A stretch of DNA of 64,000 nt. It comes from Escherichia coli O127:H6 str. E2348/69 (GTDB taxonomy: Bacteria; Pseudomonadota; Gammaproteobacteria; Enterobacterales; Enterobacteriaceae). The notes beneath the pieces were generated by a model. The model searched no databases. It was not told the origin of the DNA and saw only the letters and a list, made by a program, of their open reading frames with translations. This document shows, one piece after another, positions 18,800 through 46,833 of the stretch. The position numbers were made by a program, and so were the translations under genes. The number at the start of each line of letters is the position of its first letter. Position 1 is the first letter of the stretch. The DNA is taken from assembly GCF_000026545.1 (NCBI RefSeq), contig NC_011601.1, one strand, 5' to 3'.

Positions 18800-18803
18800 A
18801 CCA

Positions 18804-19115
18804 ATGACGACTCCAACCAGACGGATAAGTTTCTATCTGAAGCCCACCGCCGTCAAGAACGAAGGAGAAGCATGCGCCTGGCTGGACAGCCTTACACCAG
18901 AAGCCCGCAAAAGCGGCCAACGCGTGGCTTTTCTGGCCGGGCTGGCACTTCTGAAAATGAATCCGGCAGAGGCTTACCGACTGGCTGCATGGGCTGATGA
19001 TGAGGTGTTATCAGTGACACAAACCAAGACAGAACGCCCCGCGTCACAGCCAGTATCAACCGCACAGATAACCAGTCAGATGGCCGGAAATATCCGGGCG
19101 TTATTTCCTGAATAA
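18804..19115 (+). CDS. ParR/StbB-like adaptor protein
   Basis: 103-aa product from MTTPTRRISFYLKP inside the listed 18669..19115 ORF; N-terminal region parallels R1 ParR (RRxIxFxLxP ... LDS ... AGLAL); follows the parM-like gene. Confidence 0.6.
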   Translation: MTTPTRRISFYLKPTAVKNEGEACAWLDSLTPEARKSGQRVAFLAGLALLKMNPAEAYRLAAWADDEVLSVTQTKTERPASQPVSTAQITSQMAGNIRALFPE

Positions 19116-19493: not shown

Positions 19494-20576
19494 ATGGTAA
19501 ACGTGAGGGAGGATGAACTTTTCAAACTCATCGAGCAAGGCATCAAAGGCAACGCAAATGCATTTACACTCCTATGCAGAAAGATGATTAACAACATCCG
19601 TAAAAATGATGAGGCTTTAGCTTCTAAGCTGGCTTCGTTAGTTGCTGAGGGAACAGTATTACGTGGGGCATCTAGTAAGGCTCCTATGCCTGTGGATGGA
19701 GACTCCAGACGAAACCTTTTGCAGGAAACATCTGTCAACGCAATTGTTGAAGAACCTGTATGGAATACGGATATCTCAAAGAAGCTGGAGTCAATTGTTA
19801 ACGAAAGAGAGAATGCGGTTTCTTTGTTCAAAGCTGGTCTTGAACCTGTGAAGACGGTTTTACTTTCTGGCCCGCCAGGCGTAGGCAAAACAATGTCCGC
19901 ACATTGGCTTGCTGCAAAGTTAAATTTACCTCTTTTAACATTGGATCTCTCATCTGTAATGAGTTCTCTTTTGGGAAAAACAGGTAATAATATTAAATCC
20001 GTTATGGATTATGCCAAAGAGAAACCATGTGTCCTTTTGCTTGATGAATTTGATGCTGTTGCAAAAAGACGTGATGATGACAGGGACGTTGGAGAATTAA
20101 AACGTTTAGTTACTGTACTCCTACAGACCATAGATGAGTGGCCAGCGACCTCGCTTCTTGTTGCTGCGACTAATCACCCTGATATCTTAGATCCGGCTGT
20201 TTGGCGTCGATTTGAGCACATCCTTAAATTTAATATGCCATCAGTAGAACTGATAGATAGATATTTAGTCAATCATAATATTGAACCTGAACTATCTAAA
20301 AAACTTGCACCATTATTAGATGGCATGTCCTTTGCCATCATTAACCGTATTTTGAATTTCTCCAAAAAGAATGAGGTACTTAGAAATATTCCATTTGAAA
20401 GCTCATTAATAGAAGCCGTAATTACGGAGAGGGTTTCATTGGATGAGTTTAGCGATAATGATCTCAATATAATTAAATATCATTTTGACGGTTTTTCAAA
20501 TAGGAAGATAGCTGAATTAGTTGGTGTTTCACATCCAACAATCGCGAATAAATTACAAAAGTGGGGGATTAAATGA
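19494..20576 (+). CDS. AAA+ ATPase with C-terminal HTH-like segment (candidate defence component A)
   Basis: 360-aa ORF; Walker A LLSGPPGVGKT, Walker B VLLLDEFDAV, sensor-1/Arg-finger ATNHPDILDPAVWRRF; C-terminal NRKIAELVGVSHPTIANKL; AT-rich codon usage. Confidence 0.8.
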   Translation: MVNVREDELFKLIEQGIKGNANAFTLLCRKMINNIRKNDEALASKLASLVAEGTVLRGASSKAPMPVDGDSRRNLLQETSVNAIVEEPVWNTDISKKLESIVNERENAVSLFKAGLEPVKTVLLSGPPGVGKTMSAHWLAAKLNLPLLTLDLSSVMSSLLGKTGNNIKSVMDYAKEKPCVLLLDEFDAVAKRRDDDRDVGELKRLVTVLLQTIDEWPATSLLVAATNHPDILDPAVWRRFEHILKFNMPSVELIDRYLVNHNIEPELSKKLAPLLDGMSFAIINRILNFSKKNEVLRNIPFESSLIEAVITERVSLDEFSDNDLNIIKYHFDGFSNRKIAELVGVSHPTIANKLQKWGIK

Positions 20577-22777
20577 TGGAAAGGAACTTACTTTTAGGTA
20601 ACGGTCATGTTCTGACAAAAAAGGAACCTTTGCCTAAAGGAAGGGATGGTAAGCGCTATCCCTATACTCTTGAAGAAGTAAGGGAGCATTTAAACCCAGA
20701 GATTGATACTTTACTCTCACGCTTTCGCAGTTTGGATGATGCGGCTAAGCCAAGGGGGGAGAGTGTATTCAATTTAACTTTACACCCAGCGTTTTTGGGT
20801 AAAAGCTACTTTCCGGAAGGATTGCTTAGAGCGACAGGTTTACGGGATGTCGGCAGCCGTCAGGTAATCATTCGCCCACGGAAAGCGGCACGTCAGTGCG
20901 ATCAGAATAAGGACTTAGTAACGGCGCAACTGTTTGTTAGCGGTGATGATGATGCCGTTATAAGATTTAAGGAAATTTTAAATTCCCCTACAGCTCCGAA
21001 GGGCGTACAAAAGGATTTGATCGAAATTGAAAGTGTTAGCTTTTTTGAAGGAAAAGAGAGAGCACGCAATTTTGAGCATGCGAAAAGTGATTTGATAAAA
21101 TTTGAAGTGGTTCTTCATGCTGGGGTTGAAGACGATGATATCGTTAAAGCCTATATTAGCTATGCGGCACAATATGATGTCTCTGTTGATTACAAAAGTA
21201 GAATCCAAGTTGGTGGGCTGACTTTCATCGTTGCACACGCGCGACCTGAAGATATGAAAAAAACACTCGATTTTTCATTAATCCGCGTTGTGCGGCCGAT
21301 GCCGTCTCTCAGGTGTACTCAGCCGAACATTGTCAGAAAGTTATCTAATATAGTTACACCGGAGCTCCCTAATTCTAAAGCTGTTCTTGAATCCGAACGT
21401 ATTGCCATTTTTGATGGTGGCTTGGGGACAGCTGACTTGAGTAATTGGGTTACGGAATACGTGTATCCAGACACCAAAGAAACAAGCGGATTATTATTGC
21501 AGCACGGTAATGAAGTGACATCCACTTTCTTATTCGGACGTGTCGAGGAAAATGCACCTTCTTTTAAAAGACCGTTTATGAATGTAGATCATTATAGAGT
21601 TCTTTCACCGACATCAGGTGACAATGGCAATTGGGATTTATTTGATGTCCTTAAGAAAATACAGTCCGTTCTTGATAGTGGTGACTATAAGTTCGCTAAT
21701 CTAAGTATTGGTCCTCATCTTCCAATTGGTGATGATGAGGTTCATGTATGGACTGCTGTTTTAGACCAAATCTGTGCTAAGCATGGGATATTACTTACTG
21801 TTGCTGTTGGGAATGATGGCAATGAGGACGGTGATGCAGCGAGAATACAACCTCCTTCCGATATGGTAAACGCGCTAGCGATTGGTGCTGCTGATCGTAG
21901 CGGTGAAAAATGGGGGCGGGCACCATATAGCTGTATTGGGCCAGGCAGAAGCCCCGGATTCGTTAAACCTGATGGTGTTATTTTTGGTGGAAGCGACGAC
22001 GAGCCTTTTTACACTTACAACCCTCTGCTTGGTTCTATAGTTGGAGTTCAAGGAACCAGTTATGCCTCTCCATTAGCATTGAGAACGGCCGCTGGAGTTG
22101 CGGCTCTATCAGGAACTCCATTGAACACCATTGCATTGAAAGCGTTGCTTGTTCATCATGCTGAAACATCAAGAAAATATTCGCGTGAACATATCGGTTG
22201 GGGACGGTTTAGTGAGGATCCTAACGTTTTAATCGATTGTCCAAATGATACTGCTACAGTAATTTACTATGGTTCATTAGCAAAAAATAAATATTTAAGG
22301 GCACCGATCCCATTCCCTGATGTTCCCTTTGACGAAGCATTTGAGCTTACCGCTACTTTATGCATTCAAACCCCAGTAGATCCTGAACATTCAGTAAACT
22401 ATACAAGGGCCGGTATGCAGGTAACTTTCCGCCCAAGATTCGGCCTTGACGATACCGATACAGATGATTTCTTTGGTCAAAAAAGCCAGTATAAGACTGA
22501 AAGGGAGTGTAGGAGTGAAGGTCATAAGTGGGAAACTTGTTTGCACAGAAGCAAAAAGTTCAGTGCTGATACATTATTAAGCGATCCAGTTTTTGATATA
22601 CGGTATCATGCCCGAGATTCTTCGCGCCATGTTAAGGGAGTTTCAGCCCCTGATATGCAATATGCGATGGTAATAAGCGTAAGGGTAAAAGACTTTGATT
22701 TATATAATGTTATTCGCCAGCGATATACAATTCTGAATCCTATTCAACTGCGCACACAAATTTCTCTCGACACGTAA
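20573..22777 (+). CDS. subtilisin-like S8 serine peptidase, large multidomain, no signal peptide (candidate defence component B)
   Basis: 734-aa ORF, ATGA-overlapped with the ATPase gene; S8 motifs in order: Asp IAIFDGGLG, His LLQHGNEV, Asn VAVGNDGNEDG, Ser GVQGTSYASPLAL; about 260-aa N-terminal and 200-aa C-terminal extra regions. Confidence 0.8.
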   Translation: MMERNLLLGNGHVLTKKEPLPKGRDGKRYPYTLEEVREHLNPEIDTLLSRFRSLDDAAKPRGESVFNLTLHPAFLGKSYFPEGLLRATGLRDVGSRQVIIRPRKAARQCDQNKDLVTAQLFVSGDDDAVIRFKEILNSPTAPKGVQKDLIEIESVSFFEGKERARNFEHAKSDLIKFEVVLHAGVEDDDIVKAYISYAAQYDVSVDYKSRIQVGGLTFIVAHARPEDMKKTLDFSLIRVVRPMPSLRCTQPNIVRKLSNIVTPELPNSKAVLESERIAIFDGGLGTADLSNWVTEYVYPDTKETSGLLLQHGNEVTSTFLFGRVEENAPSFKRPFMNVDHYRVLSPTSGDNGNWDLFDVLKKIQSVLDSGDYKFANLSIGPHLPIGDDEVHVWTAVLDQICAKHGILLTVAVGNDGNEDGDAARIQPPSDMVNALAIGAADRSGEKWGRAPYSCIGPGRSPGFVKPDGVIFGGSDDEPFYTYNPLLGSIVGVQGTSYASPLALRTAAGVAALSGTPLNTIALKALLVHHAETSRKYSREHIGWGRFSEDPNVLIDCPNDTATVIYYGSLAKNKYLRAPIPFPDVPFDEAFELTATLCIQTPVDPEHSVNYTRAGMQVTFRPRFGLDDTDTDDFFGQKSQYKTERECRSEGHKWETCLHRSKKFSADTLLSDPVFDIRYHARDSSRHVKGVSAPDMQYAMVISVRVKDFDLYNVIRQRYTILNPIQLRTQISLDT

Positions 22778-33965: not shown

Positions 33966-34566
33966 TTCGTTGTTACCACCATCAGCCAGCAATTTCATGC
34001 GTTGTGCCGAAGCCGTCGGAACACGCATTACAGACATTCCGGTAGACCTCAACACGCTGTGGTCGCCGGACACCTGCCCGGTGCATCTGCTGCCTTATCT
34101 CGCCTGGGCATTTTCCGTTGACCGCTGGGATCGCAACTGGCCGGAAGAGACAAAGCGACAGGTGATTCGTGATGCATGGCTGATACACCGACACAAAGGG
34201 ACCATCAGCGCACTGCGAAGAGCCGTGGAGCCTCTCGGCTACCTGATTGAAGTAAAGGAGTGGTGGCAACTCAACGAGGAACCGGGAACATTTCGCATTG
34301 TTGTCGGAGTACTTGATCAGGGCATCACCGATGAAATGTATCAGGAACTTGAGCGCCTTATTGCGGATGCAAAACCAGTAAGTCGCCATCTGACGGGGCT
34401 GGCGATCAGCCTGAGTGTGAACGGAAAGATTTTCGTTGGTACGGGATGCTATCACGGCGATGCCCTGACGGTTTATCCCTACACCCCGGAGTCCATTATT
34501 GTCGAAGGGGATTATTTCCCTGCCCCAGCCATTCATTTAATTGATAATCTGAGAGTAAACGCATGA
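33958..34566 (+). CDS. I: baseplate protein I
   Basis: 202-aa product from MSNSLLPP inside the listed 33925..34566 ORF; overlaps the J stop. Confidence 0.75.
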   Translation: MSNSLLPPSASNFMRCAEAVGTRITDIPVDLNTLWSPDTCPVHLLPYLAWAFSVDRWDRNWPEETKRQVIRDAWLIHRHKGTISALRRAVEPLGYLIEVKEWWQLNEEPGTFRIVVGVLDQGITDEMYQELERLIADAKPVSRHLTGLAISLSVNGKIFVGTGCYHGDALTVYPYTPESIIVEGDYFPAPAIHLIDNLRVNA

Positions 34567-36128
34567 CAGTGAAATACTACGCCATTCTGACTAATCAGGG
34601 CGCGGCACGACTGGCTAACGCGACGATGCTCGGCAGTAAGCTGAATCTGACGCAAATGGCCGTTGGTGATGCAAATGGTGTGTTACCAACACCAGACCCT
34701 GCACAAACAAAACTGATTAACCAGAAACGCATTGCACCGCTGAATCTTCTGAGTGTTGACCCTAACAATCAGAGCCAGATTATTGCGGAGCAAATCATCC
34801 CTGAAAACGAGGGAGGATTCTGGATCCGTGAGATTGGTCTTTATGATGATGAAGGTGTACTCATTGCGGTGGCAAACTGCCCGGAAACGTACAAACCGCA
34901 GTTGCAGGAAGGCAGTGGACGCACCCAGACTATCCGCATGATTCTGGTTGTCACGAACACCGAAGCCATCACGCTGAAAATCGACCCGTCTGTGGTTCTG
35001 GCAACCCGCAAATATGTGGATGATAAAATCTCAGAGCACGAACAGTCACGACGTCACCCGGACGCCTCGCTGACCGTAAAAGGTTTTACTCAGTTAAGCA
35101 GTGCAATTAACAGTGAATCAGAAACACTGGCCGCAACACCGAAAGCGGTTAAGGCTGCATATGACCTGGCTAACGGGAAATATACCGCCCAGAACGCCAC
35201 CACTACACAAAAAGGAATTGTTCAGCTCAGTAGCGCCACGAACAGCACGTCTGAAACGCTGGCAGCGACACCAAAAGCTGTTAAGGCGGTAATGGATGAA
35301 ACGAACAAGAAAGCACCATTAAACAGCCCGGCACTGACCGGAACGCCAACAACACCAACAGCGCCACAGGGGACTAATAGTACCCAGATCGCAAGCACGG
35401 CTTTCGTTATGGCCGCGATTGCCGCACTTGTAGATTCGTCACCTGATGCACTGAACACGCTGAACGAACTGGCTGCGGCGCTGGGCAATGACCCGAATTT
35501 TGCGACCACCATGACTAACGCGCTTGCGGGTAAGCAACCGAAGGATGCCACCCTGACGGCGCTGGCAGAGCTTGCTACATCAGCAGATAAACTCCCATAT
35601 TTTACAGGGGCAGATCGTGCCGCGTTAACCGCGTTGACAAGTGTTGGACGTGCCATTCTTGGTAAAACCAGCACTCAGGGAGTTCTTGATTACCTTGGTT
35701 TGGGGGAAGGCTCTGCACTGCCCGTTGGTGTGCCCGTTCCGTGGTCCTCAGCAACACCACCAACGGGCTGGCTGAAATGTAACGGTGCAGCATTTTCTTC
35801 TGAAATGTATCCCAGACTGGCAAGGGCTTATCCCACCAATAAATTACCGGATTTACGCGGTGAATTTATCCGTGGCTGGGATGATGGGCGCGGGATTGAT
35901 GCGGGACGTACCCTGCTTTCAGGGCAGGATGGTACAAGTTTTTCTCATTACGGAGGTAATTTCGACATTGGGTCTGGTCATTCAATCAATAACTATGACC
36001 AAATTGTTTCTAACCAACCAGGCTTTTCCCGTTTTTCATTTGCAGGGCCTTCACGAGGTGATGGGGTTAATTATGTAACCATTCGTCCTCGTAATATTAC
36101 GTTTAATTACATCGTAAGGGCAGCATGA
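34563..36128 (+). CDS. H: tail fibre protein, constant N-terminal part fused to C-terminal cassette 1
   Basis: 521-aa ORF; N-terminus MTVKYYAILTNQGAARLANA typical of P2 H; internal TLAATPKAVKA repeats; C-terminal 150 aa is one of three alternative cassettes. Confidence 0.85.
   Translation: MTVKYYAILTNQGAARLANATMLGSKLNLTQMAVGDANGVLPTPDPAQTKLINQKRIAPLNLLSVDPNNQSQIIAEQIIPENEGGFWIREIGLYDDEGVLIAVANCPETYKPQLQEGSGRTQTIRMILVVTNTEAITLKIDPSVVLATRKYVDDKISEHEQSRRHPDASLTVKGFTQLSSAINSESETLAATPKAVKAAYDLANGKYTAQNATTTQKGIVQLSSATNSTSETLAATPKAVKAVMDETNKKAPLNSPALTGTPTTPTAPQGTNSTQIASTAFVMAAIAALVDSSPDALNTLNELAAALGNDPNFATTMTNALAGKQPKDATLTALAELATSADKLPYFTGADRAALTALTSVGRAILGKTSTQGVLDYLGLGEGSALPVGVPVPWSSATPPTGWLKCNGAAFSSEMYPRLARAYPTNKLPDLRGEFIRGWDDGRGIDAGRTLLSGQDGTSFSHYGGNFDIGSGHSINNYDQIVSNQPGFSRFSFAGPSRGDGVNYVTIRPRNITFNYIVRAA
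35684..35709. repeat. candidate invertase crossover site A (hix/gix/cix-like)
   Basis: ttcttgattaccttggtttgggggaa at the constant/variable junction of H; related copies at 36125.. and, inverted, at 37683.. Confidence 0.5.
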
Positions 36129-36150
36129 AAACGTTGGTTTGGGGGAAGGC
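36125..36150. repeat. candidate crossover site B (direct orientation)
   Basis: aaaacgttggtttgggggaagg at the start of cassette 2. Confidence 0.45.
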
Positions 36151-36615
36151 TCTGCACTGCCCGTTGGTGTGCCCGTTCCATGGCCCTCAGCCACGCCGCC
36201 AACGGGATGGCTGAAATGTAACGGCGCAGCATTTTCTTCTGAAAAGTACCCAAAACTGGCAAGGGCTTACCCCACCAATAAATTACCAGACTTACGCGGT
36301 GAATTTATCCGTGGCTGGGATGATGGGCGAGGAATTGATGCGGCACGCGCTTTATTGAGCATTCAAAACGGGATGTTGGAAAAACACCGCCATATTGTTG
36401 TAGCTAACGATGGATATGACACAAAGGATGAATGGGAGTTGGCCACGATTTTCAAAAAAACATATACGCAAGGCAGGGGGCTTGATGCCACAAATACAGG
36501 AGGGAGTTTGATTCCATCACCAACGCTTCATTCACGAGGAAGTATTGGTAACACAGGTGGTAGTGAAACCCGCCCCCGCAATATTGCATTTAACTATATC
36601 GTGAGGGCGGCTTAG
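36139..36615 (+). other. promoterless alternative tail-fibre C-terminal cassette 2 (direct orientation)
   Basis: The ORF begins exactly at the shared GEGSALPVGVPVPW block and ends with the shared PRNIAFNYIVRAA tail; central 70 aa differs from cassette 1. Confidence 0.7.
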
Positions 36616-36621
36616 TTATAT

Positions 36622-37233
36622 TCAACTGGCTGCTGCCAGTGGTATTTCCGGCAAGTTGATATCTGGTGCCATGTTTATATCCATTGCGTTCAGCGCGTCT
36701 ATATAATCCAGCACGGCATTAAGCCGGGTGGTTTCTGCCTGCGTCAACTTCCGCCCGGCCTGCAACTTCAACTGAATCAGACTTATGGAAGCCATTGCCG
36801 CATCAGCCAGTGACTGGCGCTTGGTTTCTGCCGCTTCTACTGCAGCACGATGTTGTGCCTCAGTATCTGTCACCCATTTTTCACCATCCCATTTATCGTA
36901 TGGTGTTAACGGGGCGATAGTGGTTGTATTTTTCGGGTAGTCACCCAGCGCCGTGATTTCTTCGGTGTTTCCCGTGTCAGTGCTATAGACGGTTTCACCA
37001 CGATGGTCTGGCGCATACTCCCATGAGCTTAAATTCTCCGAACGGCGGATAGCATAGCCCGCTTTATGTGCGCCCGGGGCATCTAAACAGGAATTTGCCG
37101 GAATACCGACACCCACAGCAAGATATTCAGTTGATTCGGAAATATATTCCCGTGTCTCACCATCATAGTTATAAACGACGATGTTTCCTGCCTGTACGGC
37201 AATAAGGTCATCATTTAATATCGCGTTATTCAT
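36622..37233 (-). CDS. tail fibre assembly chaperone (Tfa/gpG-like)
   Basis: 203-aa ORF immediately downstream of, and co-oriented with, cassette 3; phage Tfa-like N-terminus. Confidence 0.75.
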   Translation of the reverse strand: MNNAILNDDLIAVQAGNIVVYNYDGETREYISESTEYLAVGVGIPANSCLDAPGAHKAGYAIRRSENLSSWEYAPDHRGETVYSTDTGNTEEITALGDYPKNTTTIAPLTPYDKWDGEKWVTDTEAQHRAAVEAAETKRQSLADAAMASISLIQLKLQAGRKLTQAETTRLNAVLDYIDALNAMDINMAPDINLPEIPLAAAS

Positions 37234-37700
37234 TATGCGGTTCTCACAATATAATTGAAGGCAATATTGCGTGGGTGGGTTTCATTCCCCTCTGAGGATT
37301 CCGTTCTGTATTGACTGGTAAATCTACCGTTAATTGCACCTTGCCGGACGGCGTTATCTGTCGACAACAGACTATCCCCTCCTTTGTCATTTGGCACCAA
37401 CACCGTGTTATCCCACGCATCCCATGACCGAATATTATGATAATGACTTCCTGTTAACCACCCCTGCATGCTTAAGATGCCCCTTCCGGCATCCACCCCG
37501 CGCCCATCATCCCAGCCACGGATAAATTCACCGCGTAAATCCGGTAATTTATTGGTGGGGTAGGCCTTTGCCAGTTTTGGGTACATTTCAGAAGAAAATG
37601 CTGCACCGTTACATTTCAGCCACCCTGCTGGCGGTGTGGCTGAGGGCCACGGAACAGGTACACCAACGGGCAGTGCAGAGCCTTCCCCCAAACCAACGTT
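37233..37700 (-). other. alternative tail-fibre C-terminal cassette 3 (inverted orientation)
   Basis: Minus-strand ORF (listed 37233..37748) encodes the same GEGSALPVGVPVPW ... PRNIAFNYIVRTA frame with a distinct central segment. Confidence 0.7.
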
Positions 37701-37708
37701 TTCGTTTT
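37683..37708. repeat. candidate crossover site C (inverted orientation)
   Basis: Reverse complement reads aaaacgaaaacgttggtttgggggaa. Confidence 0.45.
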
Positions 37709-37762
37709 TATCCCTACCTATACCAACTCTGTATTTTTCACGAAACAAAGAGGATGTTTTTT

Positions 37763-38362
37763 ATGCAAATTGGCTATATTCGTGTGTCAACAAATGACCA
37801 GAACACGGATTTACAACGCAATGCACTGAACTGCGCAGGATGTGAACTGATTTTTGAAGATAAAATCAGCGGAACGAAATCAGCCAGACCGGGATTGAAA
37901 AAACTGCTCAGAACGCTATCAGAAGGAGATACGCTGGTTGTCTGGAAGCTGGACAGACTGGGCAGAAGTATGAAACACCTGATCACGCTTATTGAGGAAT
38001 TGCGGGAAAAAGGTGTTAATTTCCGTAGTCTGACGGACAGCATTGACACATCAACACCCATGGGGCGTTTCTTTTTTCACGTCATGGGGGCTTTAGCCGA
38101 AATGGAACGTGAATTAATTGTAGAGCGTACACTGGCCGGGCTGGCAGCAGCACGCGCACAAGGACGCATTGGCGGACGTCGCCCGAAGTTGACAAAAGAA
38201 CAACACGAGCAAATAGCGAGGCTGATTAAAAACGGTCATGACAGGAAACAACTGGCGATCATTTACGACATCGGCATATCGACGATTTATCGTTATCACC
38301 CTGTAGGCGATATACAGGCTGAAGAAACAACCAGGCAGACTCAGGAAAATAAAAACCGCTAA
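37763..38362 (+). CDS. serine recombinase DNA invertase (Gin/Cin/Pin/Hin family)
   Basis: 199-aa product MQIGYIRVSTNDQNTDLQRNAL ... LVVWKLDRLGRSMKHL ... GRIGGRRPKLT, near-colinear with Mu Gin; the listed ORF 37568..38362 includes a spurious upstream extension. Confidence 0.92.
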   Translation: MQIGYIRVSTNDQNTDLQRNALNCAGCELIFEDKISGTKSARPGLKKLLRTLSEGDTLVVWKLDRLGRSMKHLITLIEELREKGVNFRSLTDSIDTSTPMGRFFFHVMGALAEMERELIVERTLAGLAAARAQGRIGGRRPKLTKEQHEQIARLIKNGHDRKQLAIIYDIGISTIYRYHPVGDIQAEETTRQTQENKNR

Positions 38363-38381
38363 TCTGACCATTAGCGGTTTT
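38354..38381. terminator. bidirectional hairpin between the convergent invertase and U genes
   Basis: aaccgctaat-ctgacc-attagcggtt inverted repeat flanked by A/T runs. Confidence 0.55.
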
Positions 38382-38388
38382 GCGTTAA

Positions 38389-38883
38389 TCAAAACAGCCC
38401 TTTAACGGAGCTGGCCGCGCTGTTAAGGGATGATGTGACCTTATCTTTGAAGCCGGACAGCATATCACTGAACGATGAGGATTGCAGGCGCTCCCGCAAA
38501 TCCTCATCACAGCGTTCAAGAGTCAGTGAAAATTCTATCTTTTTCGCCTTACCGTAGCGATCAAACTCGGAACGGGTCGTATTCGTTTCAGTCAGTACAT
38601 ACATGCCGTAAATCTGCCCGACACCATCAATCAGAGGCCAGGGGCGTCCTGTATATGCCTGCGTGGTCAGCAACGAAAGCGACACTTCGCCACCTGTAAT
38701 TTCAGGATAAAGCACGCCGGAAAGCACGATGCGATCATCACCTGCGCCGATATACTGCCAGCTTGCTGAACGGTTAACGCGTTCATTTTTCACATGCCGC
38801 CAGCTTTTGTTTTGCTGTAACTGCTGATGCGGCAATGTGCGCAGCTCAAAAACAAACATGCCGTAGATCATCATCATGGCCAT
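38389..38883 (-). CDS. U: tail protein U
   Basis: 164-aa ORF; strong parallel to P2 gpU (MMM..G.FVF ... LSGVLYPE.TGG ... AWPLI.G.G.IYGM.V ... IDFSLTL.R.DE). Confidence 0.88.
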   Translation of the reverse strand: MAMMMIYGMFVFELRTLPHQQLQQNKSWRHVKNERVNRSASWQYIGAGDDRIVLSGVLYPEITGGEVSLSLLTTQAYTGRPWPLIDGVGQIYGMYVLTETNTTRSEFDRYGKAKKIEFSLTLERCDEDLRERLQSSSFSDMLSGFKDKVTSSLNSAASSVKGLF

Positions 38884-38889
38884 GACTCC

Positions 38890-41733
38890 TCAATCTTTAT
38901 CGTAAAAACTGCCACGTCCGGCACGGTCGCGTCGTTCCAATTCTGCCCTGACCATTTCACCGACCAGTTTCGCCAGTTTGCGGGGATTCTGCGTAACAAC
39001 GTTATGCAGATGAACATGAATTTCACCGCCAAATCCGGAGACAACAGGCTCCCGGTTACGGGAAGTTGCAGGAACTGATGCCACTGGCGATCGTATGGCC
39101 TCCGCCACCGGGCGGGAGCTGGCCGCAACAACAGGGACCAGCGCCGGAGGCAGAGGAGTCGGGACCACGGGTGTGATGTTGATTGCGGAAGCAGGCTTAC
39201 TGACCTGCGCAATCTTCCGCTCCTGCCACTCCCCACGAACAGCAAGTGCGCGGGGCAGATTCTTAAAGACAATATCGCCGGGGCCAATGCGTTTTTTCGT
39301 CTCATCAACCAGCTTACCTGTGTTATCAGCAATTTTGCTGAGTCTGCGTAGCGTACCGGTATTGCTGTCTGTGAGCGGTTTGTTGTCTTTGGGTTTATCA
39401 CCTCCGGTGCCATTGCCATTTTCCACAGGCTTCGGCGGATTGATTTTCGCCAGGTCCCCCTGAAGCAAGGCAACCTTGTCCTGAAGAATGGCCGCACGCT
39501 GTGCGTCTTCGATTTTCTTGCGCGCCCTTTCCGCTTCATCCGGAAGGACGCCAAGTTTTTCAAGTATCCACGCCAGCGTATCCAGTAGCATTTTTGCAGG
39601 CGTCAGAACAAGTTGTAACGCACCGCCAAGAACGTTACCGAATATCTCGCCAGCACTGGTACATTTATCCAGCGTTTCCTTGCTGGACTCCATCGGTGAC
39701 AGCAGCGATTTAAACCAGTTAAACACCTGGCTGATCCCGCTTCCGATTGCGTCAAAAACAGGACCAAACCGTTCAAAGGTTTCGCGCAACGGGGCCAGCC
39801 TTTCCATAATCCCGCTGAACACCCCGGCAAAAAATGCCCTGATGGGATCCCAGTATTTCCAGATAAGAACGGCAGCTCCGGCAAGTGCAGCCACGATAAG
39901 ACCAACCGGACTGAACAGCGCCCCGATAGCGCCTCCCAGTAAAGAAACGGAACCCGTCACCATTCCCCATAGTGCTGGCAGGACCCTGACAGCATTCATT
40001 GATCCGGTCAGGAGAGAAAAACCAAGACGCAGTTTTGCCAGCGGACCAGCAAGCACACCAATAGCCAGCGACAACGAGCCAACCGTTGCAGTCATTGCCA
40101 GCAACGCACCGCCTGCTATCAGTAGCTGGCGCGTCAGTGCCGGATGGGCCTGCGCCAGCGCCGTCACCCTTGATACCACCCGCGTGAGCCACTGCGTGAC
40201 AGAACGCAGCGGACCGTCAATCAGATCTGCAATGCGGATGCGCAACCCTTCCCATGCACTGCCGAGTGATTTCAGATCGCCGTCAAGGTTGTTGGCCATA
40301 ACCTTTGCTGTGCGTTCAGCCTCACCGCGCGCGCCTTCAAGTTCTTTTCTCAGTTTGGGTAAGGAACCGTCACCCGCTGCATCAACGAGCGCCATAAACG
40401 ATGTGAAAGCCTCTTCTCCGGCAATGTCCTTAAAGAACGATACCCGGTCAACTTCCCCGTATTTGCGGGTGGCTTTATAAAGGTCGGCCAGCACATCCTC
40501 CATCGGGCGCATTTTGCCCCCGGCATCCGAGACGGACACGCCCAGCTCTTTCAGAGCTTCTGCCGCCGCCTTTGGCGGTGATGCCAGACGAGCCAGGCTG
40601 GCACGCATTGCCGTCCCGGCATCACTCCCTCTGATGCCCATATTCGCCAGCACGCCAGCCATCGCTGCGGCCTGCTCCAGCGATATTCCCAGCTTACCCG
40701 CCACCGGACCTGCATATTTCATGGTTTCGCCCAGTGCGCGAAGGTCAGTGTTGGTACGGGTAAACGCTGCGGTGAGTGTGTCACCGACCCGGTCCATCTG
40801 GTCAGCAGAAAGGCCGAACTGCGTCAGGATATTTGAGCCAATATCTGCCGTCTCGCCGAGATCCATACCGCCAGCCGTTGCCATGCTCAGCACTCCGGGA
40901 AGCGCAGCCTGAATGGCCTGCGGTGTGAAGCCAGCCATTGCAAGAAATGCCTGCCCACTGGCGGCATCGCCTGCGGTGAACTGCGTTTCAGAGCCAAGTT
41001 TTAACGCCTGCTCACGCAGCGCCTTAAACTGCGGGCTGTTCTGGTCGATTCGCGTCAGCGCCTGAACGCGGGACATCTCTTTGCCGAACCCGATCGCGGG
41101 CTGCAAAAAACGCCCGGCAGCATAGCCGCCCGCCGCTGCCGCACCAATTGCCAGCGCACCACCTGTTTTCAGTTTTCCCGCGGTTTCCTGCGCGCGCGAA
41201 TACCGCTCACGCGCCCGCGTTACACGCGCAAGCGCCTGCCGTTCGCGTTCAAGCTGGTTGTTGTACTGTTCGGTGCGTCTGATGGCCTGCTGGATGGTGT
41301 TATCGCTGCCTGTCAGGGAAATGCCGTGGCGTTTCAGCTCTCCGCCAAGTTCCCGCATTTTCTGAATTTCCCGTGTGCGCGATTCATTCAGGCGTTCAAG
41401 CCGGGTGCTTAACTGCTGCATCAGCTTTTGTTGTTTTTCGCTGAGCACTGTACCCGTGCGTTGTAACTGATTAAGAGCGTTAAGCTGGCGTCGTGCTTTC
41501 AATATGCCAGCATCCGCTTTACTGACAGCGTCACGGGCGCGCTCAAATGAACGCGCCTGACGCTCGAGATTTTTGATCGCCCCCTGCGTTCGCTGGATGG
41601 AGTCACCAAACTGCCCCATCAGGCGGCGGGCGTTTTCGGCAGGCCGGGTCAGCCTGTCAACGGCGCTGAAAGCGACCCGGATATCAAGAGTCTTCATTGT
41701 CTGTATTCCCGCTGCGAAGTGCCGCCCGCTCAC
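38890..41733 (-). CDS. T: tail tape measure protein
   Basis: 947-aa Ala/Gly/Leu-rich ORF with coiled N-terminal region; position after E/E'. Confidence 0.85.
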   Translation of the reverse strand: MSGRHFAAGIQTMKTLDIRVAFSAVDRLTRPAENARRLMGQFGDSIQRTQGAIKNLERQARSFERARDAVSKADAGILKARRQLNALNQLQRTGTVLSEKQQKLMQQLSTRLERLNESRTREIQKMRELGGELKRHGISLTGSDNTIQQAIRRTEQYNNQLERERQALARVTRARERYSRAQETAGKLKTGGALAIGAAAAGGYAAGRFLQPAIGFGKEMSRVQALTRIDQNSPQFKALREQALKLGSETQFTAGDAASGQAFLAMAGFTPQAIQAALPGVLSMATAGGMDLGETADIGSNILTQFGLSADQMDRVGDTLTAAFTRTNTDLRALGETMKYAGPVAGKLGISLEQAAAMAGVLANMGIRGSDAGTAMRASLARLASPPKAAAEALKELGVSVSDAGGKMRPMEDVLADLYKATRKYGEVDRVSFFKDIAGEEAFTSFMALVDAAGDGSLPKLRKELEGARGEAERTAKVMANNLDGDLKSLGSAWEGLRIRIADLIDGPLRSVTQWLTRVVSRVTALAQAHPALTRQLLIAGGALLAMTATVGSLSLAIGVLAGPLAKLRLGFSLLTGSMNAVRVLPALWGMVTGSVSLLGGAIGALFSPVGLIVAALAGAAVLIWKYWDPIRAFFAGVFSGIMERLAPLRETFERFGPVFDAIGSGISQVFNWFKSLLSPMESSKETLDKCTSAGEIFGNVLGGALQLVLTPAKMLLDTLAWILEKLGVLPDEAERARKKIEDAQRAAILQDKVALLQGDLAKINPPKPVENGNGTGGDKPKDNKPLTDSNTGTLRRLSKIADNTGKLVDETKKRIGPGDIVFKNLPRALAVRGEWQERKIAQVSKPASAINITPVVPTPLPPALVPVVAASSRPVAEAIRSPVASVPATSRNREPVVSGFGGEIHVHLHNVVTQNPRKLAKLVGEMVRAELERRDRAGRGSFYDKD

Positions 41734-41920
41734 GCCAGCTAACCACTTCGCCGGGAGTCATCATGAAGATTTCGGCGGGCGACCAGTTAAAAATGGTGGC
41801 AATATCCGCCACCAGATCTTCGATGTGCTCAAAGCACACCAGGGTGATTACGCTGCCGTCTCCTGCACGCTCTTCGCGCCAGAGTCTGGCTCGCTCATAA
41901 AATTTACAGCCACAGCGCAC
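41684..41920 (-). other. E' extension frame (read via -1 frameshift from E)
   Basis: ORF in the -1 frame overlapping the 3' end of E and the start of T, as in P2 E+E'. Confidence 0.6.
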
Positions 41921-42222
41921 AACTGAATAAAATCGCGTGACGACATTTTTTTAATCATCACTTCATCCAGTTGTGGCGAGGTCACGCGAGGCAACAGCGT
42001 GAACATGGTATCCGCTTTCAGATTCAGCACATCAGACAGCGACAGACCACGCAGGGATCCCGCCTGCTCAATAGCCCCGGTGATCTCCACATATGTGATT
42101 TTTTCGGCACCACGCTCAATTGGCCGGGAAAGTTTTACACCACGTTCGACAGCCATATCCTCACCTGCCGTCACATCATCCGCTACGGTGTTATTCCGGG
42201 TTTCAGTATCGATATTTTTCAT
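41848..42222 (-). CDS. E: tail assembly chaperone E
   Basis: Parallels P2 gpE (LRGxSL ... LLPRxTxPxL); the true start may be the internal Met about 22 codons in. Confidence 0.75.
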   Translation of the reverse strand: MKNIDTETRNNTVADDVTAGEDMAVERGVKLSRPIERGAEKITYVEITGAIEQAGSLRGLSLSDVLNLKADTMFTLLPRVTSPQLDEVMIKKMSSRDFIQLCAVAVNFMSEPDSGAKSVQETAA

Positions 42223-42277
42223 CAGTTGTCTCCTTTTCAGTCAGAGGCGACGCACTGCGCCGCCTGCATATTACTTA

Positions 42278-42790
42278 TCAGCCAAGCCCGAGCGCGGAAC
42301 GGATGCGATCGGGCACAATGTCCTTGCCGTCCTTCCGGTAAATGAAGTTCAGCAGGTCAATCTCCCACAACGGACGATCGTTAACACTCAGCTTGTAGTA
42401 GGTGTTTTTAATGGCGTAAGTGTGTGATGTGGCTTCGCCCTGTTTGGCTTCCCCCATATCAATTTCCGTCACACGTCCGCGCATTTCGACTTCATACAGG
42501 TCGCTTTCTGCATCGGTGTAATATTCACCCGCAAAACGCAGCAGCGTGCCGTCAATCGTGCCGCCATACTTAAGGAACAGCTCACGAACTGCGCCCCCCA
42601 TGACAAAGCTCGCATCAAGCGCGGAGTCGTCCAGACCGAGATCAATACTTACCGCCCCCATCATGCCACCACCCCGGTAGCTGTCGGTTTTGCGCGTCAG
42701 CTTAGGCAGGGTGACGGACGTCACCTTACCCACTTCGTTTTCACCATCCACAAACAGCGTAAAAAAGCGAAGATGTTTTGGCACAGCCAT
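42278..42790 (-). CDS. FII: tail tube protein
   Basis: 170-aa ORF; same size and position as P2 FII. Confidence 0.85.
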   Translation of the reverse strand: MAVPKHLRFFTLFVDGENEVGKVTSVTLPKLTRKTDSYRGGGMMGAVSIDLGLDDSALDASFVMGGAVRELFLKYGGTIDGTLLRFAGEYYTDAESDLYEVEMRGRVTEIDMGEAKQGEATSHTYAIKNTYYKLSVNDRPLWEIDLLNFIYRKDGKDIVPDRIRSALGLG

Positions 42791-43974
42791 CAGGCACCTC
42801 CCAGCACCGCAAATGCGGGTTCAAAGTATTCATCAGTAAACGTCTGGTAAAGCTCCATGTCTTCCAGTGGCGGAACGGGCGTATATTTGTAGCGAATACG
42901 CACACGCCCCTGACGTAAATCCGTGGTGCTGTTATCCACCACGTCATACCAGCACTCCGCGCCAATCAGTTTCCCGGCAGTCACCAGTGAATCCAGTTTT
43001 GCCCTGATGGCACTGATAACATCCTTCACGTTCGCAGGCGTCAGTGGACTGTCGATGGTTTCAAACTGCGCTTCCGCAATTGAATCAGCCAGCACCTGTG
43101 CGGTTCGGGTATACACCTCAAAGATGTAGGCGTTCGTTTCCGGTGTGCGGTTGCCCCAGAAGCGGAACCCGTTGCGACGAATAATGGTCGTGATTTCTTT
43201 GTTGTTGAGGCTGTTGGCATCGCTGTCTTCGGCCTGCAACGACCAGAACACATGCCTCGACATCCCCAGCACATTTTTAACCGGAACGTTGGACAGTGAT
43301 TTGTGCCAGCCCTGCTCATGGTCAATGTACGCACGAAGGCCGCACGCATAGGCAGGCGCGGGGAACGTTTCGTTTTTGCCACTTTTCGGGTTGTAGGCGA
43401 TGAAGTCCGGCCATAAGAGCATCACCTCACGTTCGTTGAATTTCTGGCGGTAGGTAATCGCATCAGCCATCGTGTCACAGCCATGACATGAGGCATACAC
43501 AAACGCGCGCAGTTTACCCGCAATCACGCACAGGGATTTTGTCACCGCCTCCGTGTCCAGCTCCGGCGCGGCCAGAATACGCGGACGGTATCCGATGCTT
43601 TCATCCTGCTCTGCAACAAGCAGCGCATACATCCCCGTATAGCTGCCGTCAGATTCAGAACCACCGATAACCAGTTGATCCTGCGTCTTTCCGTCTTCTT
43701 CTTTGTGTTCAGCCACGCGAACGACGATCACCTTTGTGCTCACCTGGTCTGCGATAGCCTTAAGCGCACGATAAAGCGTCCCCGTTGTCCCGCATTTTCC
43801 CAGCACGTCATTGACGCGGGTCAGCAGTGTGGGCTTGTTCAGCGGGAACAGCTTCGCGTCCGCATCATCCGCCGTTGCCACGATACCGATAACACTGGAA
43901 TCAACATCATTAATCGCTGTTACCAGGTCGGTATTTTCCGTAACACGGGCACCATGAAAACGAGTTTCACTCAT
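42790..43974 (-). CDS. FI: contractile tail sheath protein
   Basis: 394-aa product from MSETRFHGARV inside the listed 42790..44148 ORF; colinear with P2 FI (KLRAF.Y.S..GC, GWHK.LSNV, RR.GFRFWGNRT, YTRTAQV.AD, YTPVPPLE). Confidence 0.9.
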   Translation of the reverse strand: MSETRFHGARVTENTDLVTAINDVDSSVIGIVATADDADAKLFPLNKPTLLTRVNDVLGKCGTTGTLYRALKAIADQVSTKVIVVRVAEHKEEDGKTQDQLVIGGSESDGSYTGMYALLVAEQDESIGYRPRILAAPELDTEAVTKSLCVIAGKLRAFVYASCHGCDTMADAITYRQKFNEREVMLLWPDFIAYNPKSGKNETFPAPAYACGLRAYIDHEQGWHKSLSNVPVKNVLGMSRHVFWSLQAEDSDANSLNNKEITTIIRRNGFRFWGNRTPETNAYIFEVYTRTAQVLADSIAEAQFETIDSPLTPANVKDVISAIRAKLDSLVTAGKLIGAECWYDVVDNSTTDLRQGRVRIRYKYTPVPPLEDMELYQTFTDEYFEPAFAVLGGA

Positions 43975-44131
43975 AGCTTCAGCCCCTTGTATCCGTAAAA
44001 TGATTCGGCAACAATCATCACCCACCACGCGCGTAATCTCACCCCTGCGCCGTTCTCCCGACCCGGCGACAACAAAAAGCAGTAACCCCCTCCGCACGCA
44101 CATGCGACCATGCCGCACAGGGAGGGAACAG

Positions 44132-45232
44132 ATGACCGATACCACCATGCAATTGCTCAGTCAGGGCACAGACCCCGTGAAAATGCCGGATTTTGATATT
44201 CTCGCGGAGGGTAAAACGCTGTCAGGCGTGGCAGAGCGCCTGATGAGCCTGTCACTGACCGACAACCGGGGATTTGAGGCGGACCAGCTCACCATCACGC
44301 TGGATGATGCGGATGGTCAGTTGCAGCTACCGCCACGGGGCGCGCGCCTGACGGTTCTCATTGGCTGGAAAGGAGAACCGCTGACAGAAAAAGGCACTTA
44401 CATTGTTGATGAAATCGCTCACGAAGGACCGCCGGACAGGCTGACTGTTTCAGCCAGAAGCGCAGATTTTCGGGATGAATTTAACGTTAAACGTGAGGTG
44501 TCCTGGCATGATGTGACCGTTGAGCGCGTGGTATCTGCCATCGCTCATCGGTACGGTCTGAAACCGCAAATCAGCGAAATACTGATGGATATCGAAATCG
44601 ACCACGCCGACCAGACCGAAGAAAGCGACATGTCCTTCCTTACGCGCATGGCGGAAATGCTGGGCGCAATCACCACGGTAAAAAGCGGTAATCTGTTATT
44701 CATCATGCCAGGCGGTCGCGTGAACGCACTGGGCCAGCCGTTGCCATCGTTCGCCATCACACGCAGCAGCGGCGATCGCCATCAGTTCCGCATTGCTGAC
44801 CGCGAGGCGTATACGGGTGTACGCGCCTACTGGCTTGATCTTAATTACGGGAAAAAGAAAAAAGTCAGCGTGAAACGCCGCAAACCGAAAAAAGAGAAAA
44901 GCAGCAGCCGTGAAGGTGACTATATGGAAGGTGCGGAAGGCAACGTGTTTGTGTTACGCAAAACTTATCAGAACGAGCAGGCAGCAAGACGCGCAGCGGC
45001 GGCAAAATGGCAGCAGCTACAACGCGGAGCCGCATCATTTTCCATCACGCTGGCACGTGGACGAGCAGAACTCTACCCCGAAATGCATGGCACGGTAACA
45101 GGATTTAAAAGCGAGATTGATAATCAGGACTGGATCATTGCAAAAGCCGAGCACACCATTGATAACAGTGGCTTTACCACGCAGCTTGAGCTTGAAGCCA
45201 AAATCCCGGAATGGATAGCAGAAACAGAGTAA
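44132..45232 (+). CDS. D: tail protein D (late control D / baseplate hub family)
   Basis: 366-aa product from MTDTTMQLLSQG with gggaggga RBS, inside the listed 44000..45232 ORF; position before ogr. Confidence 0.75.
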   Translation: MTDTTMQLLSQGTDPVKMPDFDILAEGKTLSGVAERLMSLSLTDNRGFEADQLTITLDDADGQLQLPPRGARLTVLIGWKGEPLTEKGTYIVDEIAHEGPPDRLTVSARSADFRDEFNVKREVSWHDVTVERVVSAIAHRYGLKPQISEILMDIEIDHADQTEESDMSFLTRMAEMLGAITTVKSGNLLFIMPGGRVNALGQPLPSFAITRSSGDRHQFRIADREAYTGVRAYWLDLNYGKKKKVSVKRRKPKKEKSSSREGDYMEGAEGNVFVLRKTYQNEQAARRAAAAKWQQLQRGAASFSITLARGRAELYPEMHGTVTGFKSEIDNQDWIIAKAEHTIDNSGFTTQLELEAKIPEWIAETE

Positions 45233-46562: not shown

Positions 46563-46775
46563 ATGGTCGGAGGGAATACCCGAAGGCCAGATGTGGAAAG
46601 GCCCCGGAAAACATCTCTGTTTAACCGAGGCCCTAACCGCATTACCTTGACAAGTGAAAGGTTAGCGCCTCTCCGGAAAAGGAGCAAGTGCTATGTCGCA
46701 AAAATCGCTTACGGCCATCACGTTCTGCGTGACGGCAATCCTCATCATCTGGATGTTGCACGGTTCGCTGTGTGA
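46563..46775 (+). CDS. mok-like overlapping leader reading frame of the hok-type locus
   Basis: 70-aa ORF overlapping the hok-like gene in another frame, as in hok/mok/sok loci. Confidence 0.4.
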   Translation: MVGGNTRRPDVERPRKTSLFNRGPNRITLTSERLAPLRKRSKCYVAKIAYGHHVLRDGNPHHLDVARFAV

Positions 46776-46833
46776 AATACGGATGAGCTTCTGGGGAGCG
46801 GAGTTTGCGGCGTTCTTACAGTGTAAGCAGTAA
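46693..46833 (+). CDS. Hok/Gef-family type I toxin (small membrane protein)
   Basis: 46-aa ORF MSQKSLTAITFCVTAILIIWMLHGSLCEIRMSFWGAEFAAFLQCKQ: one TM helix, then the Hok-family SLCEIR and AAF motifs; ggag RBS upstream; not in the ORF track (under 60 aa). Confidence 0.7.
   Translation: MSQKSLTAITFCVTAILIIWMLHGSLCEIRMSFWGAEFAAFLQCKQ

Follow-up and report, generated by a model that had tools for sequence, protein, structure and literature searches.

Analysis of a 64,000-nt window of Escherichia coli O127:H6 E2348/69 (NC_011601.1; all coordinates refer to this window unless stated otherwise) placed a tail-fibre gene, two additional collar-domain cassettes, one tail-fibre assembly gene and a serine DNA invertase gene side by side in a P2-family prophage (Table 1). 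The fibre gene, cassettes, tfa and invertase were assigned by PHROGs, Pfam and PDB sequence searches. NCBIfam profiles assigned no family to the fibre, to tfa or to any cassette, and the invertase stayed below the cut-off of every NCBIfam family it matched. All sequence features described in the initial annotation of this DNA were recovered at their positions by repeat search, cassette protein alignment and junction comparison.

Table 1 Features of the tail-fibre switch of E2348/69 in window coordinates.
Feature	Coordinates	Strand	Description
Tail-fibre gene H	34563-36128	+	3' end is a collar-domain cassette
H constant part (P2 gpH-like)	34563-35694	+	Outside the invertible DNA; same in all isomers
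Crossover site A	35683-35708	+	TTCTTGATTACC TT GGTTTGGGGGAA; within H
Cassette 0	35697-36128	+	H-fused tip in the window; 142 aa; no HxH motif
Crossover site B	36122-36147	+	AGCATGAAAACG TT GGTTTGGGGGAA; H stop codon in left half
Cassette 2	36136-36615	+	Unfused collar-domain tip; 158 aa; HxH motif
tfa	36622-37233	-	Only tail-fibre assembly (chaperone) gene; PHROG 105, E 4e-91; PGAP annotation
Cassette 3	37233-37694	-	Inverted collar-domain tip; 152 aa; HxH motif
Crossover site C	37683-37708	-	AAAACGAAAACG TT GGTTTGGGGGAA, minus-strand reading
Serine DNA invertase (Gin/Pin/Hin/Cin group)	37763-38362	+	199 aa; catalytic Ser in VSTNDQ
Candidate Fis-dependent recombinational enhancer	37784-37847		5' end of the invertase gene; two G-N13-C 15-mers
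Hairpin	38352-38381		12-bp stem; between the invertase gene and the convergent tail gene U

In the constant part of H, Pfam identifies PF12571 (residues 1-150) and two repeats of PF03406; this part also matches PHROG tail-fibre families and is 88% identical to P2 gene H at the DNA level. In cassette 0, the Pfam Collar domain (PF07484) occupies H residues 389-436. Cassette 2 matches PHROG 523 (tail collar fibre, E 2e-74), and its PDB matches are the collar domains of T4 gp37 and gp12. Protein alignment of cassettes 0, 2 and 3 (A, B and C of the initial annotation) showed near-invariant residues 1-66, a conserved PRNIxFNYIVRxA tail and unrelated middles of different lengths, confirming what had been noted about their shared and differing parts. 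The conserved block itself needs to be reinterpreted, as it corresponds to the tail-collar domain, and each cassette is thus a complete collar-type tip and more than a variable tail. The locus is organized as a tail-fibre switching segment, which excludes the constant 5' part of H and contains alternative 3' parts that face opposite ways.

The cassettes are connected by a direct repeat (35687-35908/36126-36347, 222 nt, 91% identity) and two inverted repeats (36127-36365/37465-37703, 239 nt, 89%; 35692-35906/37485-37699, 215 nt, 92%), and cassette ends form a further inverted repeat (36554-36614/37234-37294, 61 nt, 77%). Each cassette starts with a 26-bp gix/pix-like site whose right half, GGTTTGGGGGAA, and TT core are common to sites A, B and C, and homology among the three copies begins precisely at the central TT. 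The left half of site A fits the hix/gix half-site pattern, and the left halves of sites B and C are poor matches to it. The sites resemble Mu gix (TTATCCAAAACC TC GGTTTACAGGAA) as well as the e14 repeat AAACCTTGGTTTGGGAGAAGG, to which their right half is nearly identical. Site C faces the opposite way to A and B. Sites of this make-up, with two imperfect inverted 12-bp halves flanking a 2-bp core and with identical cores in inverted orientation, are those of the Hin/Gin/Cin/Pin group. At all sites in 13 loci, the centre is TT and has one and the same orientation with respect to the cassette. Junction alignment thereby defines the related hix/gix/cix-like 26-bp junctions recognized initially as sites A, B and C, each centred on TT.

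The gene following the cassettes encodes a serine invertase, as first annotated and with the correct end. The protein has the ~190-aa architecture of Hin/Gin/Cin/Pin enzymes, with an N-terminal catalytic serine and a C-terminal helix-turn-helix. Residues 1-185 of 199 align with the Mu Gin structures 4m6f and 3uj3 (E 3e-91), residues 139-185 match the Hin DNA-binding domain (1hcr), and the protein matches PHROG 125 (DNA invertase, E 1e-98). The VSTNDQ serine aligns with Mu Gin Ser9, the residue mutated to Ala in 3uj3; a mutated catalytic serine, which would have spoken against an active switch, is thus not what the gene encodes. The two 15-mers of the candidate enhancer, located at gene nt 22-36 and 71-85 and ~49 bp apart, may be Fis sites, by analogy with the enhancers of Hin and Gin. 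The blocks at gene nt 25-41 and 73-85, where the Gin enhancer sits, are invariant against Mu gin and the P88 invertase even at wobble positions, which is explained in part by coding constraint. We infer that the inversions depend on the adjacent invertase and on Fis. It should be noted that E2348/69 also has Gin-like invertases in its Mu prophage and in a second P2-like prophage.

The switch is already known. Goldberg, Fridman, Ronin and Balaban (Genome Medicine 6:112, 2014) described a P2-like prophage "shufflon" of EPEC E2348/69 with three 215-bp repeats and four variants leading to three alternative C-termini, detected by whole-genome sequencing and validated by PCR. A big inversion (A x C; NC_011601 1891695-1893703, 90 +/- 3% forward) and a small inversion (B x C; 1892127-1893703, 49 +/- 37% forward) were both present in E2348/69 colonies. 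The repeat printed in that paper matches window positions 35692-35906 at 215 of 215 nucleotides in a scripted comparison, and the published coordinates 1891695, 1892127 and 1893703 convert to 35692, 36124 and 37700, placing the left end of the big inversion at site A, the left end of the small one at site B and the right end of both at site C. The DNA is therefore identical, as are the repeats, the two inversions, the four variants and the three C-termini. The 26-bp site definition, the invertase family, the identification of the cassettes as collar domains, the observation of a single tfa and the survey of relatives are supplied by the present analysis. Both the proposal of a multi-site tail-fibre switch with a Gin/Pin-family invertase and the orientation heterogeneity on which it hinged are thus backed by published sequencing and PCR. 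The stable 90:10 bias of the big inversion is unexplained by the sites, because their sequences are identical before and after a flip. The B x C reaction is expected to be the slower one, both of its sites having poor left halves.

Public assemblies allow the exchange to be mapped. In the E2348/69 assembly CP059840.2, H is fused to cassette 3, followed by tfa in forward orientation and reversed cassettes 2 and 0. Flipping window positions 35695-37696 in silico reproduces CP059840.2 with 0 mismatches over 9471 bp, whereas 34 mismatches remain when the flip is made at the inner repeat edges, so that the exchange must have occurred within 35695-35731, an interval that includes the site core. The two assemblies thus differ by one inversion between the cores of sites A and C. 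Among related E. coli prophages, 2-5 cassettes surround the same core module in permuted order, including relatives with 4-5 sites. Two of these loci, L003 and L009, differ by three inversions at site centres; flipping reduces their mismatches from 1620 to 55, of which 5 lie in the switch region and 50 reflect unrelated divergence of the tape-measure gene. Locus L005 corresponds to L010 and L012 after a flip. Across complete E. coli genomes, H is followed by cassette 3 and forward tfa in 54 and by cassette 2 with reversed tfa in 20. Frameshifted or fragmented genes in several related records (L006, L008, L015) might suggest that such arrangements are mis-assemblies of a repeat-rich region. However, the isomers are exact reciprocal inversions with zero mismatches, the same pattern recurs across many independent complete genomes and the variants were validated by PCR in the source strain (Goldberg 2014), leaving this explanation with practically no weight.

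Inversions could also arise through RecA-dependent homologous recombination between the ~215-bp repeats (89-92% identical), with the invertase irrelevant or inactive. The length of the repeats suffices for RecA. Comparison of strains shows that polymorphisms immediately to the right of the site have been reshuffled among cassettes, and pS is 0.19 in the conserved 5' block compared with 0.04 in the variable parts; the shuffling and the elevated pS suggest a degree of homologous exchange or gene conversion. However, the single mappable within-strain event has its crossover at the site, within the outermost 37 bp, and not in the remaining ~175 bp of homology, the homology stops right at the central dinucleotide of the gix/pix-like 26-bp site, and the invertase is intact. 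Variant frequencies of 10-50% far exceed typical rates of RecA-mediated inversion for diverged 200-bp repeats. Frequencies in this range were found in single colonies (Goldberg 2014). RecA as the agent of switching is therefore very improbable, and the locus is almost certainly a three-site DNA inversion switch with a Gin/Pin-type serine invertase in a P88/Xuanwuvirus-like prophage of the P2 family.

In the mechanism that we propose for this three-site switch, the fixed 5' part of H ends in a 26-bp crossover site, followed by three promoterless collar cassettes that share the right half-site and TT, two of them oriented like H and one opposite to it. The invertase would pair the lone inverted site C with forward site A or B and, judging from its enzyme family, cut at the central TT and rotate the intervening segment. 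State 1, as in the window, consists of H-0 and forward 2, followed by reversed tfa and 3; state 2 of H-3 and forward tfa, followed by reversed 2 and 0; state 3 of H-0 and forward 3 and tfa, followed by reversed 2; and state 4 of H-2, followed by tfa, 3 and 0, all reversed. Together these four states yield three fibre tips, with the sites, the enzyme family, both inversions and all four states being matters of observation. The three tips presumably represent three receptor specificities, and switching would then change host range. Invertases of the Hin/Gin type act on sites in inverted orientation and use sites in direct repeat very poorly. Of the outcomes envisaged initially, the A x C and B x C inversions do occur (Goldberg 2014), whereas an A-by-B deletion, absent from that paper, would be unlikely given the general behaviour of such enzymes. 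The two-cassette loci L005, L010 and L012 have the structure that an A-by-B deletion would leave; they could equally be ancestral and are no evidence either way.

The tfa start overlaps the cassette 3 stop codon (ATGA), and tfa is translationally coupled to cassette 3, in agreement with the initial pairing of the lone tfa with the inverted cassette only. A co-oriented tfa is absent for tip 0 in the window state and for tip 2 always, cassette 2 being convergent with tfa in every arrangement. With two of three tips lacking a co-oriented tfa, some states may give no working fibre. A promoter scan of 35400-39000 found one weak minus-strand site within H and none to drive tfa or the orphan cassettes. 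The hairpin downstream of the invertase gene scored as a terminator on the minus strand only, and a second minus-strand hairpin lies at 38413-38395, both following gene U. A perfect minus-strand TTGACA in the invertase gene (~37785-37790) was rejected as a promoter since no acceptable -10 element lies at 16-18 nt. The Ogr-type late-promoter dyad TGT-N12-ACA was uninformative, with 11 matches in the window against 16 expected by chance, including 37385 and 37730 and none where prophage late promoters should lie.

These features raise the question of whether the switch flips DNA with little or no biological effect, either because the prophage is non-infectious or because only tip 3, which is followed by tfa, works and the others are passengers or off states. 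That the three cassettes have a single tfa, which runs antisense to H in the window, would fit such a reading, as would the two terminator-like hairpins, the outcome of the promoter scan for tfa and the fact that no phenotype has been reported for the locus. However, the prophage gene set appears complete, gpD is full length and 99% identical to P88 gpD, and 11 copies of cassette 2 in related loci are intact, with a variable-part pN/pS of 0.13 compared with 0.33 for cassette 3. From these ratios, the variable part of cassette 2 is constrained at least as strongly as that of cassette 3 and is under purifying selection. Further, a similar Gin switch with three cassettes operates in an Enterobacter phage, whose locked isoforms are not equally infective (PMC13418256). 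We thus consider a switch devoid of biological effect unlikely, though less so than the two alternatives discussed above.

This prophage family might have departed from the customary pairing of each fibre tip with its own chaperone and share one central tfa among 2-5 collar tips, with tips 0 and 2 working in the absence of a co-oriented tfa, a possibility that we advance tentatively and hold to be doubtful. Tips 0 and 2 might fold unaided, or tfa might be expressed from the other strand, for instance through read-through of the convergent late tail operon; alternatively, tfa-reversed states might be deliberate "fibre-off" states. A single tfa is likewise found in relatives with 2-5 cassettes, and two tfa genes each are present in Mu, P88 and L013. 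The E2348/69 tfa is 78% identical to the one partnering a different collar cassette in L013. Hints at a shared tfa are this pairing of the same tfa type with a quite different collar cassette and the purifying selection on cassette 2 despite its head-on tfa. Read-through of the convergent tail operon as a source of tfa transcripts is unsupported, given the two terminator-like hairpins after gene U.

The discovery value of the locus is small, as its repeats, variants and fibre ends were published in 2014 and the mechanism is the textbook one of Gin, Pin, Cin and Min. It does serve as an annotation example: its orphan "phage tail protein" genes are cassettes of a switch, two assemblies of the same strain can disagree here without either being wrong, and a reference genome captures a single state of a mixed population.

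Similar to the Mu G/Gin, e14 P/Pin and P1 C/Cin systems, 26-bp sites lie at the junction between constant and variable parts of a fibre gene, and the enzyme gene adjoins the segment. Unlike those systems, the E2348/69 locus has three sites instead of two and short collar tips of 142-158 aa, and unlike Mu (U and U') and P88, it has one tfa for three cassettes instead of one for each variable 3' part. The R64 shufflon is driven by the tyrosine recombinase Rci at 19-bp sfx sites and acts on the pilus gene pilV. As in R64, multiple inversions select alternative C-termini of one adhesin-like protein in E2348/69; however, the adjacent recombinase is a serine invertase, and the prophage gene survey identified no tyrosine recombinase next to the switch segment, making this a "shufflon" by analogy only. 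The Min multiple-inversion system of plasmid p15B was reportedly described by Sandmeier, Iida and Arber in the early 1990s. Like p15B Min and P1-like phage-plasmids, the E2348/69 switch combines a serine invertase with more than two crossover sites and alternative 3' cassettes fused to one fibre gene, and its three sites in both orientations and four published variants make it a multiple-inversion system of the Min type. By description, it differs from p15B Min in residing in a chromosomal P2-family prophage and in having fewer sites (3; 2-5 in relatives). In the P1-like phage vB_EcoM-673R5, these same sites occur at least five times, together with close relatives of cassettes 3 and 6. Cassettes in tandem direct orientation, initially judged unusual, are already found in the literature for the E2348/69 locus itself, for p15B Min and for an Enterobacter phage. 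The latter, a temperate phage with the FRphi tail-fibre shufflon (Nat Microbiol 2026, PMC13418256), produces three C-terminal isoforms through a gin-encoded recombinase; the isoforms were quantified by long reads, locked variants were tested and FhuA is the known receptor of one isoform. FRphi belongs to a different phage and host, and its likeness to the E2348/69 switch is seen in the three-isoform Gin-type arrangement.

The fibre switch of E. coli E2348/69 is of a textbook type, and the same locus has already been described and experimentally verified. By sequencing individual colonies of this strain, Goldberg, Fridman, Ronin and Balaban (Genome Medicine 2014, 6:112) found "two interlaced funnels" in its P2-like prophage, and they validated all four variants by PCR, so the orientation heterogeneity that the initial annotation proposed to look for has already been found. 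Their Table S1 lists a big inversion (NC_011601 1891695-1893703, forward 90 +/- 3%) and a small one (NC_011601 1892127-1893703, forward 49 +/- 37%). The leftmost 215-bp repeat printed there exactly matches window 35692-35906, and by the offset of this match the published coordinates fall at window 35692, 36124 and 37700, corresponding to crossover sites A, B and C at the starts of cassettes 0, 2 and 3. The B-by-C inversion, suggested earlier from the arrangement of the cassettes, is thus real and identical to the published small inversion. On the basis of sequence checks and the published variants, both the description and the interpretation of the switch in the initial annotation were correct.

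Features of the tail-fibre switch (window coordinates)
Feature	Coordinates	Size	Strand or position	Details
Direct repeat	35687-35908 / 36126-36347	222 nt		91% identity, repeat finder
Inverted repeat	36127-36365 / 37465-37703	239 nt		89% identity, repeat finder
Inverted repeat	35692-35906 / 37485-37699	215 nt		92% identity, repeat finder
Site A	35683-35708		within H	left 12 nt TTCTTGATTACC
Site B	36122-36147		past H stop codon	left 12 nt AGCATGAAAACG
Site C	37683-37708		minus strand, adjoins invertase gene	left 12 nt AAAACGAAAACG
tfa	36622-37233		minus	PHROG 105, E 4e-91
Invertase gene	37763-38362	199 aa		residues 1-185 align with Mu Gin (PDB 4m6f, 3uj3), E 3e-91

Two complete assemblies of enteropathogenic E. 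coli O127:H6 E2348/69 match the window at 100% identity. In a third E2348/69 assembly (CP059840.2), H is fused to cassette 3, followed by tfa in sense orientation and cassettes 2 and 0 reversed. In silico inversion of window 35695-37696, from central dinucleotide to central dinucleotide, reproduces CP059840.2 with 0 mismatches over 9471 bp; the count rises to 2 when the breakpoints are shifted 3 nt outward and to 34 when they are set at the inner edges of the repeats. These counts place the exchange at the site, in the interval from 35695 up to the first polymorphism of the repeat (35732). Plain homologous recombination between the repeats is argued against as the cause of this inversion, given that the crossover lies at the site and not in the remaining ~175 bp of homology.

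All cassettes share their first 14 nt, TT GGTTTGGGGGAA, with the central TT marking the exact start of homology between copies, while the left 12 nt of the site vary by position and are not common to A, B and C. In gene orientation, Mu gix reads TTATCCAAAACC TC GGTTTACAGGAA, with a TC instead of a TT centre, and the e14 repeat was published as AAACCTTGGTTTGGGAGAAGG (Goldberg et al., Genome Medicine 2014, 6:112). Based on this resemblance, the related 26-bp junctions, initially likened to hix/gix/cix sites, are ordinary gix/pix-type sites consisting of one good and one variable half. The TT centre is found in the same orientation relative to the cassette in 13/13 related loci examined.

Protein alignment of the three cassettes shows that residues 1-66 are almost invariant and the final 13 conserved, as noted initially, with middle parts that are unrelated to each other and differ in length. 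The conserved block represents a phage tail-collar domain (Pfam PF07484 at H residues 389-436; PHROG 523) and, among solved structures, matches the collar regions of T4 gp37 and gp12; this makes every cassette a complete, if small, fibre tip of the collar type. When alleles of a given cassette type are compared (the window and loci L002-L012, related prophages), synonymous divergence (pS) is ~0.19 in the conserved 5' block against ~0.04 in the variable part, a roughly fivefold difference, and SNPs immediately right of the crossover sites are shuffled between cassette types. This pattern points to gene conversion among the repeats in addition to site-specific inversion. Upstream of site C, the frame of the inverted cassette (37233-37748, minus strand) runs on without a stop for 19 codons, as far as a TTG, and this short leader would be gained by whichever cassette adjoins the invertase gene. 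A promoter scan of 35400-39000 found none for the cassette in that position, leaving expression of a free collar-domain protein from this frame unsupported.

Alignment to solved structures identified the catalytic serine and a recognisable Hin-type DNA-binding domain in the invertase, consistent with its first assignment to the Gin/Pin family of serine invertases. Its 5' coding region contains two G-N13-C 15-mers (gene nt 22-36 and 71-85), located at the positions that Fis sites occupy in the Hin and Gin enhancers, and gene nt 25-41 and 73-85 show no change relative to the Mu gin and P88 invertase genes, even at wobble positions. These features are suggestive of a candidate enhancer, which would be positioned outside the invertible segment.

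Hin/Gin-type invertases build a topologically defined synapse with the enhancer, and directly repeated sites lead to knotting, not deletion. Given this established behavior, A x B deletion would not be expected at the E2348/69 switch, and none was reported for the locus by Goldberg et al. (Genome Medicine 2014, 6:112). Because the left halves of both B and C are poor, B x C inversion probably proceeds more slowly than A x C. A slower reaction would be in line with how widely the small inversion varies between colonies, which its authors read as a sign that steady state had not been reached (Genome Medicine 2014, 6:112). The A x C big inversion (window 35683-37708) holds a reproducible 90:10 ratio in the published data. 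Inversion leaves the sequences of the 26-bp sites unchanged, and the candidate enhancer is not part of the segment. The bias has no explanation in the sites themselves; the ratio may reflect slow kinetics from forward-state founder cells and not an equilibrium.

The sole tfa is, as first described, inverted relative to the current H fusion and, in the state captured by the window, runs antisense to H. At its start it overlaps the stop codon of inverted cassette 3; at its other end, 6 bp separate it from the end of cassette 2, the second forward cassette, to which it is physically fixed head-on in every state. The scan of 35400-39000 found no promoter for tfa, and two terminator-like hairpins follow the end of the convergent gene U. 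Eleven intact copies of cassette 2 are present in related loci, and pN/pS in its variable part is 0.13. In another prophage (L013), a 78%-identical tfa is paired with a quite different collar cassette and a non-collar tip has an unrelated partner tfa, suggesting that the collar scaffold common to the cassettes is what tfa recognises and that one tfa could serve them all. Either tfa would be expressed while reversed, or some tips may dispense with it.

In related E. coli prophages the number of cassettes is 2, 3, 4 or 5. Typing of the variable parts revealed a core module that stays constant, made up of forward cassette 2 followed by tfa and cassette 3, both reversed, with accessory cassettes (types 0, 1, 4, 5 and 6) located outside of it. 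The same cassette sets recur in permuted orders: locus L005 is a flip of L010 and L012, and three inversions at site centres convert L003 into L009, reducing mismatches from 1620 to 55, only 5 of which fall in the switch region, the rest being unrelated tape-measure gene divergence. A survey of 5426 complete E. coli genomes turned up 54 in which cassette 3 and a sense-oriented tfa come after H, and 20 in which H leads into cassette 2 and tfa is reversed. The P1-like phage-plasmid vB_EcoM-673R5 (L015, 3565-6544) contains at least 5 of the same crossover sites and collar cassettes related to types 3 and 6, which connects the array with Min-type regions in relatives of P1 and p15B. Several of its cassettes and its invertase gene ('Hin1/Hin2') are broken, apparently by homopolymer sequencing errors. 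A functionally dissected Gin "shufflon" with three isoforms also exists in an Enterobacter phage (FRphi, PMC13418256).

The switch resides in a P2-family prophage of ~36 kb (window ~10.8-46.8 kb) inserted between btuC and ihfA and encoding an integrase, a gpA-type replication endonuclease, head and lysis proteins, baseplate V-W-J-I, fibre H, ogr and a hok/gef toxin. The sheath-to-U tail block (FI, FII, E, E', T, U; window 38389-45232) is located on the strand opposite to H, gpD and ogr, an inversion relative to P2 gene order, so that the fibre switch and invertase sit between convergent gene blocks. Phage P88 (Xuanwuvirus) has the same layout, making this a lineage trait. The gpD-like gene is annotated by PGAP from 44441 (263 aa), with a small pseudogene called close by; an ORF from 44132 (window 44132-45232) encodes 366 aa with 99% identity to the full-length P88 protein, and the annotated start is thus probably too far downstream. 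Two cargo genes between the replication/partition genes and the portal gene (window 19494-22777), annotated as AAA ATPase and S8 peptidase, match the models for the anti-phage defence system IetAS (IetA, E 4e-89; IetS, E 7e-41). The prophage further carries ParM-type segregation genes (17840-19115) and a Hok/Gef toxin gene (46693-46833), plasmid-like maintenance functions within an integrated P2-family element.
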